Positions 1,177 through 9,073 of a DNA stretch of 9,206 nt are shown here, piece by piece. A program made the translations under genes and the position numbers. The DNA comes from an uncultured archaeon (GTDB lineage: Archaea; Asgardarchaeota; Thorarchaeia; Thorarchaeales; Thorarchaeaceae). The stretch's first letter is position 1, and each line of letters begins with the position of its first letter. The notes below the pieces were generated by a model that was not told the DNA's origin, ran no database searches, and saw only the letters and a program-made list of their open reading frames with translations. The stretch is from positions 1-9,206 of the forward strand of contig CAZYLT010000042.1 of the NCBI GenBank assembly GCA_964648855.1. Reading direction: 5' to 3'.

Positions 1177-2253
1177 TCAATCTGTTTTGAGTATGATACG
1201 CTTATCTTCAACAATAGCCATAACCCTTCCCAGTCGACTCTCTTCAGGACCCATTGCTTCCCAAGCACTAGCAAGGTATGCGTCAACATCACCTGATGAT
1301 ATCTTTATGCACGGTGAGTAGACAAGAAGTTCTTCAATCAGCCGACCTATATTGGATATCTTAAATCGAGATTTTTCAATTTTCTTCAGATTGCCACCAT
1401 ATGTGGGCTGTTGGACATAGAGAGTTTCCATGCCTTCATTCTGTGCGGACTGACGTTGGTGCTTGTCAGCGGTAAGAAAGATTATTCTCGTGTTAGTATT
1501 CTTCTGAAGAAAGCTCACTTCATACCGAATCAGGCTGTCAAAAACCGCATCGACGAACTTGGTTTCAGTCTGAATGCGTTCTGAATAATACAAATGTGCG
1601 GGCATACTAATGATGACGCGATGCTTCTCCTGTAGCCGCCTCATCTCCCGCAGCCCCTTGATTCCAATTCGTCCCTGGTGTGATGCAACTCGATAGATTG
1701 GATCTTGCGAGTCGAAGGTTGGTTCTTTGTAACTGCCAGTCATTAGCCGATAGTAGTTTTGGTCACGGTTGTGAATACCTTCTAGTCGGTCAACAAAGGC
1801 GGATTTACGAAAAGTGTTGCTCAGCTTGTAATGGAGCTCATGGTCCACTCCTGATGGTACTACAAGGAAGTGAGGTAGTCGCTTATACGGTTCTGGATGA
1901 TGGAGATTCATGTAATTGGGATAGAAGTGACTTATCACGAGATTGGTGTCTAGTGCCAATGCAACTGTTCGATTGCCCGGATTCTCCAAGGCGTCGTCAA
2001 TAACCTTCGAAAGCTCTTCATCGTTCTTCGAAGGAATCATGCCGGCACGCCAGACCATCTGCACGAGTTCTCTGGTTTCTAATTTGCGTTCGATTTCCAG
2101 AAGGCATTTACCAAAATCTATAGACAACCTAATGACATGTCCATTGTACTCGTTCCATCCTCTTACCTCCAGAATCTTGCTCTCAGAGTATAAACCATTG
2201 AGCAAGTCTGTCAATGTTTCAGGCTGCGGGCTCGATCTTTTTGACTTCGGCAT
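1177..2253 (-). CDS. PIN-domain protein (putative RNase) with N- and C-terminal extensions
   Basis: PIN motifs: ALALDTNL (first Asp), VVPSGVDHEL (Glu), FDSLI (Asp), FLTADK...AQNEG (last Asp). Start uncertain (GTG 2268, ATG 2262 or ATG 2253); it overlaps the upstream CARF gene, suggesting translational coupling. Confidence 0.8.
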   Translation of the reverse strand: MPKSKRSSPQPETLTDLLNGLYSESKILEVRGWNEYNGHVIRLSIDFGKCLLEIERKLETRELVQMVWRAGMIPSKNDEELSKVIDDALENPGNRTVALALDTNLVISHFYPNYMNLHHPEPYKRLPHFLVVPSGVDHELHYKLSNTFRKSAFVDRLEGIHNRDQNYYRLMTGSYKEPTFDSQDPIYRVASHQGRIGIKGLREMRRLQEKHRVIISMPAHLYYSERIQTETKFVDAVFDSLIRYEVSFLQKNTNTRIIFLTADKHQRQSAQNEGMETLYVQQPTYGGNLKKIEKSRFKISNIGRLIEELLVYSPCIKISSGDVDAYLASAWEAMGPEESRLGRVMAIVEDKRIILKTD

Positions 2254-2788
2254 CCAAATCATCCACACTGATTAGTATCGTTTCAGCATCATCCAACCCC
2301 AGTTCATAGGCCTTCTTTGCCAGCTTCTCTCTTGAGAAGTCATGAAGGAGATAATACGAGATGAAGACCTCACGACCGTATTTTTGATGCACAAGAAGCG
2401 AGGCAACCAAGGCACTGCCCGTCATCATCTTCCGTCCGGCCGTCGTGTCTACAACCACTTGGCATCCCTCGGGGCATCGCTCCAACAATGCCTTTGCTAT
2501 GATTTTTGTGGCTACTGGAAGGTCTGCCTCAGGAATCCAGATGATATCGTCTGTCCTGAATTCAATCTTCTCAAATGCTTTCGGAGCCATTCGCGATGAT
2601 ATTTGTTTGCTCAGGTCACATACTTGCTGGATGATGTTCTCTCCCTTTGCGGATGGCTCTCCGTCATCCCAGGAGGTTATGAAGTACACCTCATCGATTT
2701 CAGGATCATTTTCTGACCTGAGATACCAAGATAACGAGTTTGCACACGCCTGTGGCGTCACACCAACCGTCATGAAATATTTCGACAT
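2219..2788 (-). CDS. Stand-alone CARF-domain protein (Crn1/Csx14-like; cyclic oligoadenylate binding or ring nuclease), ~189 aa
   Basis: ATG at 2788 preceded by a strong SD (AGGAGGT), so shorter than the 2866 ORF call. CARF motif I YFMTVGVTP, second strand IDEVYFITS, and motif II VVDTTAGRKMM (DxTxGRKxM). No HTH or nuclease domain fused. Confidence 0.82.
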   Translation of the reverse strand: MSKYFMTVGVTPQACANSLSWYLRSENDPEIDEVYFITSWDDGEPSAKGENIIQQVCDLSKQISSRMAPKAFEKIEFRTDDIIWIPEADLPVATKIIAKALLERCPEGCQVVVDTTAGRKMMTGSALVASLLVHQKYGREVFISYYLLHDFSREKLAKKAYELGLDDAETILISVDDLDAEVKKIEPAA

Positions 2789-2876
2789 CCAGTTACCTCC
2801 TAAACCTACCTCCCTTGGTGTGAATGATTGTATTAAAGCATTCGGGAATTGCACCTTTGTGACCAATTCTCAAAAC

Positions 2877-2966: not shown

Positions 2967-3194
2967 CGTATCTTTCATGCGTGCTAACACCTGTCTTGAA
3001 GCATAAATAGAATCTGATGACCTCTCCCAAATGCAATCTCGTGTCCTTGGGTGACCTGAGTCTTCGGGCACAAAACACATTAGACCTCTCACAGGATAGT
3101 AACCCTAGATGGAAATGAGCACAAGAAATCAATTTATTTTGCATAACTCAAGAATTCGATTTTATTCCTATTTTTCTAGTATAATTTCACGAGT

Positions 3195-3239
3195 TGCGAT
3201 GCCCTTTATAAGCGACAGCAAGTTTGAGGGGGCATCGCA
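3195..3239. promoter_or_regulatory. Inverted repeat enclosing a TATA-like box, in a putative CRISPR leader
   Basis: TGCGATGCCC (3195-3204) / GGGCATCGCA (3230-3239) are perfect 10-bp arms. TTTATAAG lies directly inside the left arm, with an AT-rich tract at 3125-3190 upstream. Confidence 0.45.
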
Positions 3240-3302
3240 TGGCATGCCTGGAAGCGGAGTTATGCGGGCTCGTATGGGCAAAATTGATATGTTTGACGGG
3301 CT

Positions 3303-3338
3303 ATTGCAGAAGTGAATCCCGAAGAAAGGGAATTAGAC
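3303..3338 (+). CRISPR. Single CRISPR-type repeat ATTGCAGAAGTGAATCCCGAAGAAAGGGAATTAGAC (orphan repeat or mini-array)
   Basis: 36 nt with a CCC-gaagaaa-GGG hairpin followed by an 8-nt tail, the layout of Cas6-processed repeats. 24 nt (3310-3333) match 9183-9206 exactly in reverse complement, next to cas1/cas2. Confidence 0.6.
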
Positions 3339-3469
3339 ACTAAAGGTAGCCTTCTGTTCCTCTTAATATACGAAGATGAAAGACCGGTCTTAGGTAGTCG
3401 ATATGCCCCATTATTTCTGACGTTGCGAACCAGATCCTCTTCTCTATCTGATTTTCTCTAAATGACCAA

Positions 3470-3495
3470 GAAATCAAAGAATCTGCTTTGATTTC
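3470..3495. other. Perfect 10-bp stem hairpin/palindrome
   Basis: GAAATCAAAG-aatctg-CTTTGATTTC. Confidence 0.6.
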
Positions 3496-3555
3496 AGATT
3501 GACAGCAAAGTTATCGCATTCGTTTTCCTCTTGGAACTGGAAGTTGAATGATGTA

Positions 3556-3582
3556 GATGGAAAGTTTCAGGGTACTCTCTTA
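3556..3582 (+). repeat. 27-bp direct repeat, copy 1 (upstream of micro-ORF)
   Basis: GATGGAAAGTTTCAGGGTACTCTCTTA; 26/27 identical to 5178-5204. Confidence 0.85.
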
Positions 3583-3617
3583 ATAGTTCAATATTCCATA
3601 TTATTTACAATGGTAGG

Positions 3618-3761
3618 ATGACCAAAATGGGCGATGAAGACATAATCTATATCGATGAAGAAGGTAACATTATTGAATCGAACGTTGTGGAGTCCTCAAC
3701 GGACGAGGAAAAGGGACCTACGACTGCCATAAGGGACAACTTGGGGGAGTTCGCGTTATAA
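3618..3761 (+). CDS. Small acidic peptide (47 aa; 44 aa from ATG 3627), candidate modifier/substrate of the E1-E2-JAB module
   Basis: MTKMGDEDIIYIDEEGNIIESNVVESSTDEEKGPTTAIRDNLGEFAL*. It has 13 D/E, protein-like composition, GGTAGGATG upstream of ATG 3627, and lies just downstream of the 27-bp element. Too short for the ORF track. Confidence 0.6.
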   Translation: MTKMGDEDIIYIDEEGNIIESNVVESSTDEEKGPTTAIRDNLGEFAL

Positions 3762-3912
3762 TCTTGATTGCATGAATTCAACGTCTGCAGTCCAAAGTGG
3801 AGCGTAATTCTAGCGCAACATTCGTGCTGTAGAAATATTGGCGACCAATGCGATAGCTCCGGTCATCATTGGTTGCATTTGCTTCAAGGAAGCAGCTGTT
3901 GAGGGAAAACAA

Positions 3913-5124
3913 GTGCTCGACTATGGAACAACATACACGAATCACGCGAAGATTTCGGGATTTCTATTTTCATTTCTTGTAAGCTATGTTTTGAGGTCAT
4001 CACCTCTCATATTATCACATCTATTCAATGAGTCAACACTTATGCTCTATTTATTCCCGTTCTGGATCGGCATCGAACTATTCCTCATCTCTGTTTTTGC
4101 TGTCTATGGATGGACAGGAGTTGTCCTATCAATACTGATAGACGCAAATCTAAGGCCAACTCTGCAAATTGACCCTATTGTCTTTTTAGTGTCAGAAGCG
4201 ATCACGGTGACGATTATAGCAATTAGCCATGCAAATAGATGGTACAAGGGAATAACCCCTAGATGGAAATCCATGCTAGTGGCGGCAATAGCACCGTTCC
4301 CAGGAGTACCAGTAGTAAGCCTAATCTTTCTCAAGCTGTTGGAGGTTCAAGTCACTACAACTGAAATCTTCCATCTTGCCTTAATGTGGATTGATTCTCT
4401 AGTTTTCATATGCATAACTGCACCAATATCTCTTCACATCTTCCTGAAGCGGGGTGGCAGTAGAAGAAATTGGGCACCGATATGGCTCATTCATTTTATT
4501 GAGGGCCCAATCCGGCCCAGCAGAGGGGTAGCCAATCCTGTTGAACAGGCATACTCGTCTCGCGTCGAGAGAAACTCGGCTCAGAAATATCGTATTTGGT
4601 GGGATTTTGAAAATGTATCCATGCCACCGAATGAAATACGTGATTTCATAAATAAGATACAGGGAGAAATGATTCCGGGGATGGTTTTTGCTGATTGGAA
4701 TCGCTTCTCCGACGGAATGTTGAAGGCGCTGTATCGGGCCATGGTGACTCCAGTTCATGTGCCGGATGACAGAGAAGATGCTGCTGACAAAGTAATGAAA
4801 TCGAAGATGGCACAGGTGAGGCATGAAGGAAATATTACCGAAGTAGTTGTGACAGGTGATCAAGGATTCTATGGGATTGTTCGCGATTGGGTTGAGGCTG
4901 GAGTGAGGGTATGGATTGTGACTCAAAACCAATGCTACAGCAGAAGCTTGGCACAAGTTGCTACTCTCCATTCAGAGATCTCAACATTTCCCAGATGTTC
5001 TTCAATTGGAGAAGCGGGTTATCAGTCTTCGATTGAAGATAATGTACGAATAATCTGTGACGCGTGCAATCATGATAATAACATTGGGAATCAAGTTTGT
5101 GAACGATGTAATACCAGGTTCTAG
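3913..5124 (+). CDS. Multi-pass membrane protein (MASE1-like) fused to a NYN (LabA/DUF88) RNase domain and a C-terminal zinc ribbon
   Basis: N-terminal ~5-6 hydrophobic helices with MASE1-like patterns (FPFWIGI...YGW; MWIDSL...TAP). NYN motifs IWWDFENV, FADW, EDAADK, VVVTGDQGF...GVRVWIV. C-terminal CDAC...CERC. Start is either GTG 3913 (GAGGG at 3901-3905) or TTG 3838. Confidence 0.8.
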   Translation: MLDYGTTYTNHAKISGFLFSFLVSYVLRSSPLILSHLFNESTLMLYLFPFWIGIELFLISVFAVYGWTGVVLSILIDANLRPTLQIDPIVFLVSEAITVTIIAISHANRWYKGITPRWKSMLVAAIAPFPGVPVVSLIFLKLLEVQVTTTEIFHLALMWIDSLVFICITAPISLHIFLKRGGSRRNWAPIWLIHFIEGPIRPSRGVANPVEQAYSSRVERNSAQKYRIWWDFENVSMPPNEIRDFINKIQGEMIPGMVFADWNRFSDGMLKALYRAMVTPVHVPDDREDAADKVMKSKMAQVRHEGNITEVVVTGDQGFYGIVRDWVEAGVRVWIVTQNQCYSRSLAQVATLHSEISTFPRCSSIGEAGYQSSIEDNVRIICDACNHDNNIGNQVCERCNTRF

Positions 5125-5177
5125 AATTATCGTGGTGTATGGGATTGTTCCAAGATAGTATCAATTTATGCAGATTG

Positions 5178-5204
5178 GATGGAAAGTTTCAGGGTGCTCT
5201 CTTA
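5178..5204 (+). repeat. 27-bp direct repeat, copy 2 (upstream of E2-E1-JAB operon)
   Basis: GATGGAAAGTTTCAGGGTGCTCTCTTA; 26/27 identical to 3556-3582. Confidence 0.85.
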
Positions 5205-5271
5205 TTTGTAAAGGGGTATACTGAGTATTGTAGGAACATGGAGGAGAAGAGCATGACAAAGGTGAAACACT

Positions 5272-5712
5272 TTGACTAAATCAGATTATCACCTGGCTGT
5301 GAATAAAGGGCTACTAATTACTGGTCGGGATCTCAATAGGACTCGATGGCGAGTGGAGTCAGAACGGCTCAGGCTATACTGTCCCGGCTGGAAACTGGAA
5401 TTAAGAAGACAGAATGGCGAAAAGACCATGACAAAAACGATGGGCTCGGTGAAGTGTGGTAGGAAGGCGTTCGACTTGATTATTAAGATTCCAAACCACT
5501 ATCCATACAAGATTCCCACAGTATTTACTCACAGATGGAGCACAGGAGACTCGCCTCATGTATACAACAATGGAGCACTCTGTGTTATGAAATCAGACCA
5601 GTGGAGGTCTATCTACTCACTTGCTTTAGTTGTCAAGAAGGCGACTGTCTGGATCCATAAATACCTCTCTTGGAAGAAGAAGAGTAGATGGCCAGGCAGG
5701 GCACAGGACTAG
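5272..5712 (+). CDS. Prokaryotic E2/UBC-like ubiquitin-conjugating enzyme
   Basis: UBC-fold signature IKIPNHYPYKIP, PHVYNNGALC (catalytic Cys), downstream W, and a W..KY..W....WPG tail typical of prokaryotic E2s. TTG start with GGTGA at 5261-5265. Confidence 0.8.
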   Translation: MTKSDYHLAVNKGLLITGRDLNRTRWRVESERLRLYCPGWKLELRRQNGEKTMTKTMGSVKCGRKAFDLIIKIPNHYPYKIPTVFTHRWSTGDSPHVYNNGALCVMKSDQWRSIYSLALVVKKATVWIHKYLSWKKKSRWPGRAQD

Positions 5713-5723
5713 GGGGAACCACG

Positions 5724-6551
5724 ATGGATTACAAGAGAATAGAATACATTCTTACGCCGGAGGAATTGGAATCAAAGGAAGTTCTCGTTGTCGGTCTTGG
5801 CAGCGGAGGAGCACCAGTTGTACAACATATGGGAATGAATGGTGTTCGGAATTGGCTGCTGTACGACCCAGATCGACTCGATGTGGTCAATCTTGTGAAG
5901 CACCCAGCCATGAGAAGTGAATTGGGCGAACTAAAAGTCAATATCATGGAGAAGTGGTTGCTAGATAGAAATCCCGAATCCAGAGTAAAGAGTTGTCCTG
6001 AGGATGTAATGCAGTCACCTGCTTTTGAGGAGGATGTAAAGGCTGCAGACATAGTAATATCAGCCTCCGATAGCATGCAAGTTCGGCAATATGTGAATCG
6101 GATTTGTGTTGATAACTCGACCATGTGTGTCACTGCAAACGTTTTCAGAACCGGGTTTGGTGGGGAGGTATTTAGCTACATTCCAGGTAAGACTGGCTGT
6201 TTTCAGTGTCTTCTCTTTATTAGCCAGAAGCAGGGATGGCATGCATTAGATTCATCAATAGACCTGTTGCCTGAAGAAGAAGAACATATTTACGGACTTG
6301 ATGAACGGGAATTCAAAGCGTCAGGTTTATCGATGGACATCGCGATTATATCATCCATTGCAGCAAAAAGGGCCCTTCGTCTGATTCTGCGGAACCCCAA
6401 CCCAAAGTTCTATCCCGAAGACCGTTCGAATTATATCATATTCTACATGAGAAGCATCTCTGGGTATCAAGCATTCTCAAGCGATAGATACTTCATTTCT
6501 CCACAGGCTCAATGCTTTTGCGCCCACCTAGAAGAAGGTGAGCCAGATTGA
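5724..6551 (+). CDS. ThiF/MoeB-family E1-like adenylyltransferase
   Basis: VLVVGLGSGG nucleotide-binding loop, DPDRLDVVNLVKH, GELKV, ASDS, GCFQC and a C-terminal CFC. ATG 5724 follows GGGGGA, 11 nt after the E2 stop. Confidence 0.92.
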   Translation: MDYKRIEYILTPEELESKEVLVVGLGSGGAPVVQHMGMNGVRNWLLYDPDRLDVVNLVKHPAMRSELGELKVNIMEKWLLDRNPESRVKSCPEDVMQSPAFEEDVKAADIVISASDSMQVRQYVNRICVDNSTMCVTANVFRTGFGGEVFSYIPGKTGCFQCLLFISQKQGWHALDSSIDLLPEEEEHIYGLDEREFKASGLSMDIAIISSIAAKRALRLILRNPNPKFYPEDRSNYIIFYMRSISGYQAFSSDRYFISPQAQCFCAHLEEGEPD

Positions 6552-6596: not shown

Positions 6597-7607
6597 GTGT
6601 ATAAGCTGCAGCACAAATCACCATTCATGACCTTAAACAGAAGACAAATGAGGATTGTAGTGGGGCTAGACCAAGTCAAAGTTAGCGACCGAATCCTGAG
6701 AAAGGCAATCGAACGAGCCCGATACAACAGAACAGTCGAAGTAGGTGGAATATTAATCGGCTTTATCGATGAAAGATCTTCTAGATTCGATTCCTATGGA
6801 ACACTCCGAGTCATAAACGAGATTCCCAGTGGCCCGAGAGCAGAACGAACTGCCACAAGTCTACATGGGGATTTAGAGTATCAAGAAAAGCAATTCGAGC
6901 GAGTTTTTCAGAGAGATAGAAGGGTGCACCATTTAGGAAGCTGGCACAGTCACGTAGCTAACGGAATGCAACATCTGAGCAATGGAGATTTGCAATCCTA
7001 TCAGAATATGGTCTGCTCTGAAAGGCATAGACATTCTTACTACTTTGCTTTGTTGCTTCTGCGGCTCCCAGTCTTCGGCATTTGTGACCATTCGGTTTTC
7101 AATTATTTCCGGTTTTATCTAATCCATCGTGACTTTCATACAATATGCTTTGAATTGGGCAGGGACTGCATTACCATAGAAGAACAACCAGAAGATTACT
7201 CGAATCTGATTCAGGATTATGAAGTATTTCAGCAACAAAGAATCACAGTCTTGAACAAGGAGCCAGCAGGCTGGGTTAATTCTAGCACTGGAAGGAAGTT
7301 TCTGAAAAACGATTCAAAGATTATGGATTCGTTGACAGAAACTATACCAATCCTTGAACAGGGCCCAATTCTTCTGAGAAGGGGAAGCACCTCCGGCCGT
7401 ATAGTCAGGACATTCTTTCTAGGAAGCCACAGGATTGAATATCAATATCCCGAAGAAACGCTAAATGGACGCATAACGATTGAAGTATTCATGAGTGGGG
7501 ATAGAACCGACTATGAGCGAGTTCTTAGAGTAAAGCTGAGTCCTGTTCCCTTACGATTTAAGATCTTTAGGATCATAATTCAGACCCTATCAGAAATGAA
7601 CGAGTAA
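6597..7607 (+). CDS. JAB/MPN+ (JAMM) metalloprotease with an uncharacterised C-terminal extension
   Basis: EVGGILIG, GPRAER, GSWHSH...LSNGD (E-x-HxH-x-SxxD). GTG start with GGAGG at 6586-6590. Confidence 0.9.
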   Translation: MYKLQHKSPFMTLNRRQMRIVVGLDQVKVSDRILRKAIERARYNRTVEVGGILIGFIDERSSRFDSYGTLRVINEIPSGPRAERTATSLHGDLEYQEKQFERVFQRDRRVHHLGSWHSHVANGMQHLSNGDLQSYQNMVCSERHRHSYYFALLLLRLPVFGICDHSVFNYFRFYLIHRDFHTICFELGRDCITIEEQPEDYSNLIQDYEVFQQQRITVLNKEPAGWVNSSTGRKFLKNDSKIMDSLTETIPILEQGPILLRRGSTSGRIVRTFFLGSHRIEYQYPEETLNGRITIEVFMSGDRTDYERVLRVKLSPVPLRFKIFRIIIQTLSEMNE

Positions 7608-7748
7608 AGAAGGTAATAATCGAGAACCAATTATCAGTGAGTTGAGTGAAGAAGGTTTATCGGATGTTGAGAAGGGGGCTTAGCTTTCCTGATAGCCATC
7701 AAGTTAGGACAATACATACAGACCCAAGACTACTGGAGAAAGAAGTGA

Positions 7749-8777
7749 ATGAGTTCAACGAAGAGTACAATTATCCTTACAGAGTTTGGCTCTTCCCTAA
7801 GAAAGCAGGGAAAAAGGTTTGTGATTAGCGGAGAGGATGGAGAGAAGAAAAAGATTGCCACCTGCAAGGTAGACAAGATAATGTTGCCTTTGCGAGGCTC
7901 AAGTGTATCAACCGATGCCCTTCTTCTTGCAATGACCGACTCTATTCCAGTATTATTGATACAAAGAAACGGAGCGCCAGTTGGATTTTTGAACAACCTT
8001 CTGAAGAAGGGAAATGTTGACCTACGAAGAAAACAGTATAATTTAAGTAAAAAGGACCGAGCAGTTGTGTTGGCCAAGTCATTCGTGCTGGGAAAGGTAC
8101 AGAATCAAATAGGGCTGCTAAAGCGAAAGGCTGCCAATAGAAAGAAATCCAAACCAGCCCTCACGAAAGAGCTTTTGCAAAACACAGAAAAAATGCAATC
8201 CATACTGGATGGATTAAGTGAACATGCAAGTCATGGAACTGAAGTGATGGATCGACTGTTTGGGATCGAAGGCAGCATTGCGGCACGATATTGGCAGTCC
8301 ATCCGGAGAATACTGCCCGATTATCTTTTATTCAAAGGACGCACAGGTCGCGATGCAAATGACCTAGTTAATTGCATGCTGAATTATGGCTATGCCATTT
8401 TGCAGAGTGAAATATTGATAGGTATCCTGGCAACCGGACTTGACCCATCTGTTGGAATCCTTCATTCTGACAAAAAGGGTAGAAATTCTTGCGTTCTTGA
8501 TTTGATGGAGGAGTTTAGACCTATTGTTGATAGTGCGATACTGAAAATTATTGTAACGAGTAATGAAAATCTCAGTCAACATATCGATGGTGGGCGGTTG
8601 AGTAGAGAAATGAGAAGGATGATTGCAGGTGCCATTACAAACAGGCTCTCTACTGAGACTCGATATGGGACAAACTCAAGGAAAATCAAGGCTATCATAT
8701 CAAAACAGGCACAGAAGCTTGCGGAATGCATTGGGCATGAAGAGAAAGAATACTCACCTTTCGTGGTTAGGTGGTGA
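7749..8777 (+). CDS. cas1: CRISPR-associated endonuclease Cas1
   Basis: SVSTDAL, LFGIEGSIAARYW, NCMLNYGYAIL, GLDPSVGILH, LDLMEEFRP; catalytic E/H/acidic residues are present. Confidence 0.97.
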   Translation: MSSTKSTIILTEFGSSLRKQGKRFVISGEDGEKKKIATCKVDKIMLPLRGSSVSTDALLLAMTDSIPVLLIQRNGAPVGFLNNLLKKGNVDLRRKQYNLSKKDRAVVLAKSFVLGKVQNQIGLLKRKAANRKKSKPALTKELLQNTEKMQSILDGLSEHASHGTEVMDRLFGIEGSIAARYWQSIRRILPDYLLFKGRTGRDANDLVNCMLNYGYAILQSEILIGILATGLDPSVGILHSDKKGRNSCVLDLMEEFRPIVDSAILKIIVTSNENLSQHIDGGRLSREMRRMIAGAITNRLSTETRYGTNSRKIKAIISKQAQKLAECIGHEEKEYSPFVVRW

Positions 8778-9073
8778 ACCAGATCCACCACATTGCCATC
8801 TATGACATCTCGAAGGATTCTCTCAGGAATCGAGTCGCAAACAAGCTGCTTGACTATGGCATGCAGAGAATACAGTTTAGTGCATTCATGGGTATTTTGT
8901 CATTATCCCAGAGGGAGCAGCTTACAAGAGAATTGAAGGAGATTTGCAACAACGCAAATGATAACGATTCGGTTTTTATTGTGCCCATCTGTGAGGTTTG
9001 CCTTGGCAAGTCTACCATCTTGGGATCTATTGACTTACAAAGCCTTGAACTCCCTCCTGTGATCATGGTATGA
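8771..9073 (+). CDS. cas2: CRISPR-associated endoribonuclease Cas2
   Basis: IAIYDIS...RNRVANKLLDYG MQRIQFSAFMG...DSV...PICEVC. Overlaps the cas1 stop (GTG at 8771 or 8774). Confidence 0.96.
   Translation: MVNQIHHIAIYDISKDSLRNRVANKLLDYGMQRIQFSAFMGILSLSQREQLTRELKEICNNANDNDSVFIVPICEVCLGKSTILGSIDLQSLELPPVIMV

Follow-up and report, generated by a model that had tools for sequence, protein, structure and literature searches.

We analyzed a 9206-bp stretch of DNA from an uncultured archaeon of the Thorarchaeaceae (the window), which is the whole of contig C42 in a 3.1-Mb genome of 62 contigs that is 94.6% complete. For this genome, the small-subunit rRNA model for archaea reaches 1279 bits and the one for bacteria 960. 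On its plus strand the window carries, in this order, a short open reading frame (ORF) for a peptide, a gene for a membrane protein with an NYN domain and a zinc ribbon, genes for ubiquitin-type E2, E1 and JAB enzymes, and cas1 and cas2 of a clustered regularly interspaced short palindromic repeat (CRISPR) system. A near-perfect direct repeat lies once upstream of the peptide and membrane-NYN unit (copy 1) and once upstream of the E2-E1-JAB unit (copy 2). We find that this repeat is probably a duplicated promoter box with a predicted operator for a Csa3-like regulator, which would give the peptide gene and the ubiquitin-type enzymes one common switch. The initial annotation had proposed three explanations for the repeat. 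The first, a shared promoter or operator, is supported by a palindromic core, by the match of this core to the csa3 promoter and by its position, kept in relatives, ahead of the peptide gene; the other two, borders of an exchangeable cassette and CRISPR RNA (crRNA)-like units, found no support.

The two plus-strand copies of the repeat, GATGGAAAGTTTCAGGGTRCTCTCTTA, at 3556-3582 and 5178-5204, are identical at 26 of 27 positions, and both are intergenic, as initially annotated. When the copies are extended to 3587 and 5209, 29 of 32 positions agree; the similarity then ends sharply, and local alignment of the flanks reaches only chance level. A two-match outcome was obtained in none of 200 dinucleotide shuffles of the window. 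Further copies, for which the initial annotation had recommended a genome search, did not appear: at up to six mismatches there is no third copy in the 3.1-Mb genome, and the 27-mer at up to three mismatches is absent from the 85 other genomes of the family. Searching 40 relatives at the DNA level with window positions 3150-5300 returned matches only to the CRISPR leader and repeat. Metagenome contigs scanned for exact matches to a 21-nt core gave a single one, within a thiolase gene, which we dismissed as chance.

Each copy contains the operator ATGGAAAGTTTCAGG, in which 11 of 14 positions obey dyad symmetry and whose core, GAAAGTTTC, forms the dyad. The perfect palindrome ATGGAAAGTTTCCAT is found once in the genome, between csa1 and a gene for a Csa3-like protein (C32:2473-2487). 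Because orthologues of this protein place its start at MKLHIATLG, the center of the palindrome lies 58 nt before the csa3 ATG. In the promoters of the closest csa3 orthologues, GGAAASTTTC or a variant with one or two mismatches stands in the same place, 7-8 nt upstream of GAARNTTTAT, the B recognition element (BRE)/TATA sequence, and an AAGTTGAA element is located ~3-7 nt upstream of the palindrome. The exact core was not found elsewhere in 30 csa3 loci. Both window dyads are followed at the 7-nt spacing of the csa3 promoters by an AT-rich box, although this box is weak as a TATA element. As the same layout of dyad, 7-nt spacer and AT-rich box recurs in relatives and in the csa3 promoters, the 27-32 nt common to the two copies appear to comprise an operator, a spacer and the start of a TATA-like box. 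We also noted the 9-mer CTCTTAATA at 3359-3367, just after an orphan CRISPR repeat, and again at 3576-3584 inside copy 1; it may be a chance recurrence or a second TATA-like word.

The Csa3-like gene, at C32:1773-2423 on the minus strand, sits at the end of a type I-D cas operon on contig C32, near csa1-cas6-cas3-csc2. This operon encodes a Cas10d-like HD protein, Csc2, the Cas3 helicase, Cas6 and Csa1, and the contig also carries Cas1, Cas4 and a Cas2-like ORF homologous to the Cas2 of the window. The Csa3-like protein (216-227 aa) matches the Pfam families HFX_2341_N (36.7 bits) and MarR_2 (30.1 bits), with a weak match to Csa3_N, and a sequence search of the Protein Data Bank gave only a weak ArsR match. 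Its AlphaFold model (predicted local distance difference test score, 85) most closely resembles, over the full length, the Sulfolobus solfataricus Csa3 structures 6wxq, 2wte and 6w11 (template modeling score 0.65-0.70 over 221 columns, E ~5e-11). By this model, the protein has a Csa3-like fold, with an N-terminal CARF/Rossmann-like domain and a C-terminal winged helix. Homologues of csa3 are present in 47 of the 86 genomes of the family.

In a phylum sample of 400 genomes, only two (G063 and G095) gave full-length JAB homologues. Two more loci, L058 and L061, both from Thorarchaeota metagenome-assembled genomes, were added through homologues of E1. Members of the micro-ORF family occur in all five (the window, G063, G095, L058 and L061) and have the motifs ..VVYIDEEGNV.. 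and ..AIRDNLGEF in common, a degree of sequence conservation that identifies the micro-ORF as a real, conserved peptide gene. Comparison of these homologues makes ATG 3627 a more likely start than ATG 3618. Three tandem peptide units are found in G063 and L058. In G063, L058 and L061, E2 adjoins the peptide gene, with neither a gene nor a second box between them. The end of each unit in LGEF suggests processing by JAB that would expose a C-terminal residue for E1 and E2. In two genomes, the tandem units directly preceding E2 resemble a poly-precursor.

The dyad is likewise kept in position, 58-63 nt before the peptide ATG in four of the five loci, as it is at csa3 itself (58 nt). Second dyad sites are found in G063 (at -79) and, further upstream, in L058. 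The fifth locus, L061, has the variant GGGAAAGT(T)(T)CCC as part of a module of ~70 nt. In this locus, four intergenic copies of the module, all in the same orientation and with an GGGAAAGTTTCCC-type dyad, lie within 9.5 kb (at 147, 6831, 7656 and 9424) and separate unrelated genes, including a HicAB pair. On L060, a G095-like contig, a dyad core lies upstream of E2, so that separate boxes for two units are not peculiar to the window. G063 carries further dyads before a cluster of RAMP genes that neighbors cas6 and in the divergent promoter of a unit encoding a metallo-β-lactamase (MBL) nuclease and a Csa3-like paralogue, as well as a perfect palindrome, TGGAAACTTTCCA (L057 6720 = G063:C105:28719), between cas1-cas2 and a nurA-herA-mre11-rad50 operon.

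Genome-wide, the exact core GAAAGTTTC occurs 28 times, which is the chance level. Only four of these occurrences are intergenic: the two window copies, the palindrome at C32:2473-2487 and a site at C1:223710 that is not palindromic past the core. Because loose genome-wide counts equal those of a reversed-pattern control, the dyad does not appear to be a general promoter word. With a position weight matrix (PWM) built without the window copies, both copies score 14.6 bits. Of 3.1 million positions, 23 reach at least 14 bits and six of these are intergenic. Five of the six have a gene downstream: the site at csa3, both copies in the window and two more. High scorers within ORFs, such as C1:5544 and C19:5167, were set aside as chance. 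The PWM scan thus places the motif in CRISPR-associated promoters, and it co-occurs with csa3, which is present in both G000 and G063.

These observations suggest the following mode of action. Each box would consist of a 15-bp near-palindromic operator (ATGGAAAGTTTCAGG, with ATGGAAAGTTTCCAT as its ideal form), a 7-nt spacer and an AT-rich TATA-like box, and a dimeric winged-helix regulator would dock on the dyad, next to the core promoter on its upstream side. By doing so, it would set two units together: the peptide and membrane-NYN genes, and E2-E1-JAB, perhaps with readthrough into cas1-cas2. The likeliest candidate for this role is the Csa3-like protein of contig C32, with its CARF and winged helix-turn-helix (wHTH) domains; its own promoter carries the perfect palindrome. 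Transcription is predicted to start ~25 nt past the TATA-like box, at about 3605-3612 and 5227-5234, near the GTAGG words, and the predicted leaders would be short, with G-rich Shine-Dalgarno-like words. The initial annotation placed GTAGG before an ATG at both copies; at 3613-3617 the word indeed directly precedes ATG 3618, while the second, at 5230-5234, ends 3 nt before ATG 5238.

Several points weigh against this proposal. The one csa3 homologue found in G095, at 43% identity, carries another sequence in its promoter, and immediately downstream of csa3 in our genome there is a 535-aa protein with two wHTH regions that could bind in place of the Csa3-like protein. No Cas10 cyclase was found in the 94.6%-complete genome with the NCBIfam models TIGR02577 and TIGR02578, leaving the usual Csa3 ligand without an evident source. 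For S. solfataricus Csa3a, binding to the palindrome in vitro was only non-specific (PMC8699464). Finally, the spacer is also identical between the window copies, which is more than the operator alone needs; identity through these 7 nt therefore points to recent duplication as well as to constraint.

The first two of these points would also fit the same operator and promoter box serving a different binder, either the 535-aa multi-wHTH protein or another factor. We consider this unlikely: csa3 orthologues from several genera have the dyad at one constant promoter position, and the E2-E1-JAB locus of G063 includes a Csa3-like paralogue downstream of a dyad-bearing divergent promoter. It is less probable still that the main significance of the copies lies in homologous recombination, or in cassette boundaries that make the peptide and NYN block exchangeable, as the initial annotation had offered as its second explanation. 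The arrangement of units bounded by such boxes does differ among the window, G095 and G063, and the L061 modules lie between unrelated genes. Yet neither of the relatives with full-length JAB homologues has the peptide block bracketed. The G095 peptide and membrane-protein unit has a single site and a different placement with respect to E2-E1-JAB; in G063, E2 follows directly on the peptide gene. Moreover, the window encodes no recombinase besides Cas1, promoters sit at unit borders anyway, the flanks of the copies are unrelated with similarity stopping at 32 nt, and a deletion between the copies would take out the conserved peptide gene. Given the varying unit order and the multi-copy modules of L061, recombination at shared boxes may still occur as a by-product. 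We give even less credence to the copies being non-functional leftovers of a recent local duplication that arose as the NYN gene entered between the peptide gene and E2. The identity that continues through the spacer would agree with such an origin, as would the loci in which the peptide gene abuts E2 without a second box, but what was retained is only 32 nt with recognizable promoter parts, both flanks having diverged to chance level, and the dyad is conserved across genera.

The third explanation in the initial annotation, which we regard as highly improbable, held that the copies are crRNA-like units of the CreA/CreR type, cut by Cas6 at G|ATGGAAAG to leave a tag followed by an 18-nt guide. 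The word ATGGAAAG agrees with the real tag, ATTGAAAC, at six of eight positions, and an orphan leader with one degenerate repeat lies 217 nt upstream of copy 1 on the same strand. In addition, a 37-nt stretch that ends at the 'tag' of copy 1 agrees with the CRISPR repeat at 18 positions, a score reached by 0.3% of genome positions. Copy 2, by contrast, matches at the chance level of 12 of 37, and local alignment of the CRISPR repeat with the regions upstream of the copies also gave chance-level scores. The small stem noted before copy 2 has a folding energy of -4.6 kcal/mol, equaled or surpassed by 38 of 200 shuffles, and copy 1 has no such stem; hence neither repeat-like sequence nor a hairpin precedes both copies. 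With up to two mismatches allowed, no genomic target exists for the 'guide', whose best off-site matches have three, as expected by chance. Furthermore, the part conserved in relatives is the symmetric GAAA-S-TTTC, which spans the supposed border between tag and guide. Because the base at its center is G in some cases and C in others, the conserved unit appears to be a DNA dyad rather than a tag and guide.

Table 1. Coordinates of the promoter boxes, genes and related features (window positions unless a relative is named)
Feature	Position	Strand	Description
Upstream element GGAAGTTGAAT	3541-3551	+	Before copy 1 only; matches the AAGTTGAA element of csa3 promoters
Copy 1 promoter box	3556-3587	+	Operator ATGGAAAGTTTCAGG 3557-3571 (center 3564), 7-nt spacer, AT-rich TATA-like box CTTAATAG 3579-3586
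TTCAATA..CATATTATTTA	3590-3610	+	Kept in the G063 peptide promoter; putative alternative or second TATA-like element (read from sequences)
Peptide gene	3627-3761	+	Acidic, 44 aa from ATG 3627 (47 aa from ATG 3618); ..DIIYIDEEGNII..AIRDNLGEFAL
Membrane protein, NYN domain and C-terminal zinc ribbon	3913-5124	+	Pfam NYN; second gene of first unit
Copy 2 promoter box	5178-5209	+	Operator ATGGAAAGTTTCAGG 5179-5193 (center 5186), 7-nt spacer, AT-rich box CTTATTTG 5201-5208
Putative upstream ORF (uORF), 13 codons, MEEKSMTKVKHFD	5238-5279	+	Stop TAA 5277-5279 overlaps E2 start codon; read from sequence
E2	5272-5712	+	Pfam; homologues in relatives
E1 (ThiF)	5688-6551	+	Pfam; homologues in relatives
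JAB	6597-7607	+	Pfam; homologues in relatives
BRE/TATA-like GAAGGTTTATCG	7650-7661	+	Canonical; before cas1; same word is BRE/TATA in csa3 orthologue promoters
cas1	7749-8777	+	
cas2	8771-9073	+	Followed by CRISPR array from ~9177
Peptide gene, L019	11127-11528		
Peptide gene, L020	6205-6354		
Peptide gene, L058	1027-1455		
Peptide gene, L061	272-403		
Dyad center relative to peptide ATG, window	-63		ATG 3627
Dyad center relative to peptide ATG, G063	-60		
Dyad center relative to peptide ATG, G095	-62		
Dyad center relative to peptide ATG, L058	-58		

Two start codons within the window are corrected here (Table 1). The membrane-NYN gene starts at GTG 3913 and not at 3838. ATG 5238 is not the start of E2 but opens a putative uORF of 13 codons. 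E2 begins at TTG 5272, a start that is consistent with E2 homologues and is served by the Shine-Dalgarno-like motif AGGTGA. Judging from the sequence, the overlap of the uORF with E2 may provide a translational coupling that replaces the peptide-E2 coupling of G063, L058 and L061. No relatives of the NYN protein were recovered by word search or in the genome-contig search. The membrane protein has a weak homologue in G063 and a homologue of 45% identity in G095 without NYN, which indicates that the NYN domain was inserted or lost within this family. We note that the G095 homologue (L020 6497-7258) retains the transmembrane part and the zinc ribbon. The window JAB protease has a long C-terminal part, and the closest homologues of the window E1 are named Candidatus Thorarchaeota by NCBI. 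The canonical BRE/TATA-like sequence before cas1 suggests that cas1-cas2 have their own promoter and are perhaps transcribed independently.

The CRISPR array after cas2 runs on into contig C9. In crRNA orientation, its repeat reads ATTGCAG...GGGAATTGAAAC, with ATTGAAAC as the 8-nt tag. The CRISPR leader (with TTTATAA) occurs a third time, together with a single repeat whose last 6 nt are degenerate, at 3170-3339 on the plus strand, aimed toward the peptide unit. As the arrays of C9 and C1 have the same leader at their far ends, a 5.9-kb block appears to be bounded by inverted leader/repeat copies. Upstream on the minus strand are a CARF-like gene and a PIN gene, with a HEPN gene at the left end of the window. 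A protein of ~190-215 aa with the CARF-type motif DTTAGRK, lacking an effector domain and overlapping the PIN gene, is encoded in all three E2-E1-JAB loci examined (window 2219-2866 on the minus strand, L020 3493-4068 and L019 13895-14506). We considered the window protein (~200 aa) as a local regulator and rejected it as the binder, as a winged helix would not fit.

In Sulfolobales, the sites of Csa3a and Csa3b in cas promoters are imperfect palindromes that directly adjoin BRE/TATA on its upstream side and are bound by the product of the neighboring csa3 gene (PMC4333418, PMC5389559, PMC8699464). Like the Csa3a operator/CAPPa (PMC4333418, PMC5587795, PMC8699464), the element described here is an imperfect palindrome in CRISPR-associated promoters, set shortly before a clear BRE/TATA at csa3 orthologues and before a weak, putative TATA-like box in the window. 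It is also mostly missing from other promoters and accompanies a csa3 gene (neighboring in Sulfolobales). The link of Csa3a to DNA-repair genes is also echoed by the G063 site before nurA-herA-mre11-rad50. In contrast to CAPPa, however, the sequence is GGAAA-S-TTTCC rather than TCCC-N8-GGGA, the setting is Asgard and type I-D rather than type I-A, and the site was not found in CRISPR leaders; the predicted targets here are the peptide/E2/E1/JAB module and the membrane NYN gene, whereas there they are the acquisition cassette alone. The GAAA/TTTC half-sites are shared with the Csa3b operators RI and RII of the type I-A interference promoter (TTTTC-N8-GAAAA; PMC5389559), although their orientation and spacing are inverted here (GAAA-N1-TTTC). 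Csa3b represses together with Cascade (PMC5389559). CreA/CreR crRNA-like regulators resemble our element in having short CRISPR-repeat-like words within a cas locus, and an orphan leader and repeat lie nearby here, but flanking pseudo-repeats, a Cas6 hairpin and a matching target are lacking in our case, and the conserved unit is a DNA dyad.

As a predicted Csa3-type operator, the element is thus familiar in kind, and it is new in its sequence (GGAAA-S-TTTCC), lineage, cas subtype and putative regulon. Csa3-type control, as proposed, would be extended from the type I-A systems of Sulfolobales to Asgard type I-D and to non-cas genes. The module under its proposed control is more remarkable than the regulatory element, and the box offers a testable handle on how this CRISPR-linked peptide/E2/E1/JAB module is switched, with one site, one candidate regulator and two promoters. 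The recognition of the micro-ORF as a real, conserved and putatively co-regulated gene is also relevant to the study of the conjugation system. A bolder possibility, which we hold only tentatively and think doubtful as it stands, is that a CRISPR sensor of the Csa3 family acts as master switch of a miniature Asgard ubiquitin-like pathway, with an immune signal inducing the peptide, E2-E1-JAB and membrane RNases. If so, identical promoter boxes would drive both an acidic peptide of ~45 residues, encoded in some genomes as poly-peptide repeats whose units all end in ..RDNLGEF, and the E2-E1-JAB enzymes for its processing and conjugation. This would amount to peptide tagging under the control of an immune signal in the closest prokaryotic relatives of eukaryotes.

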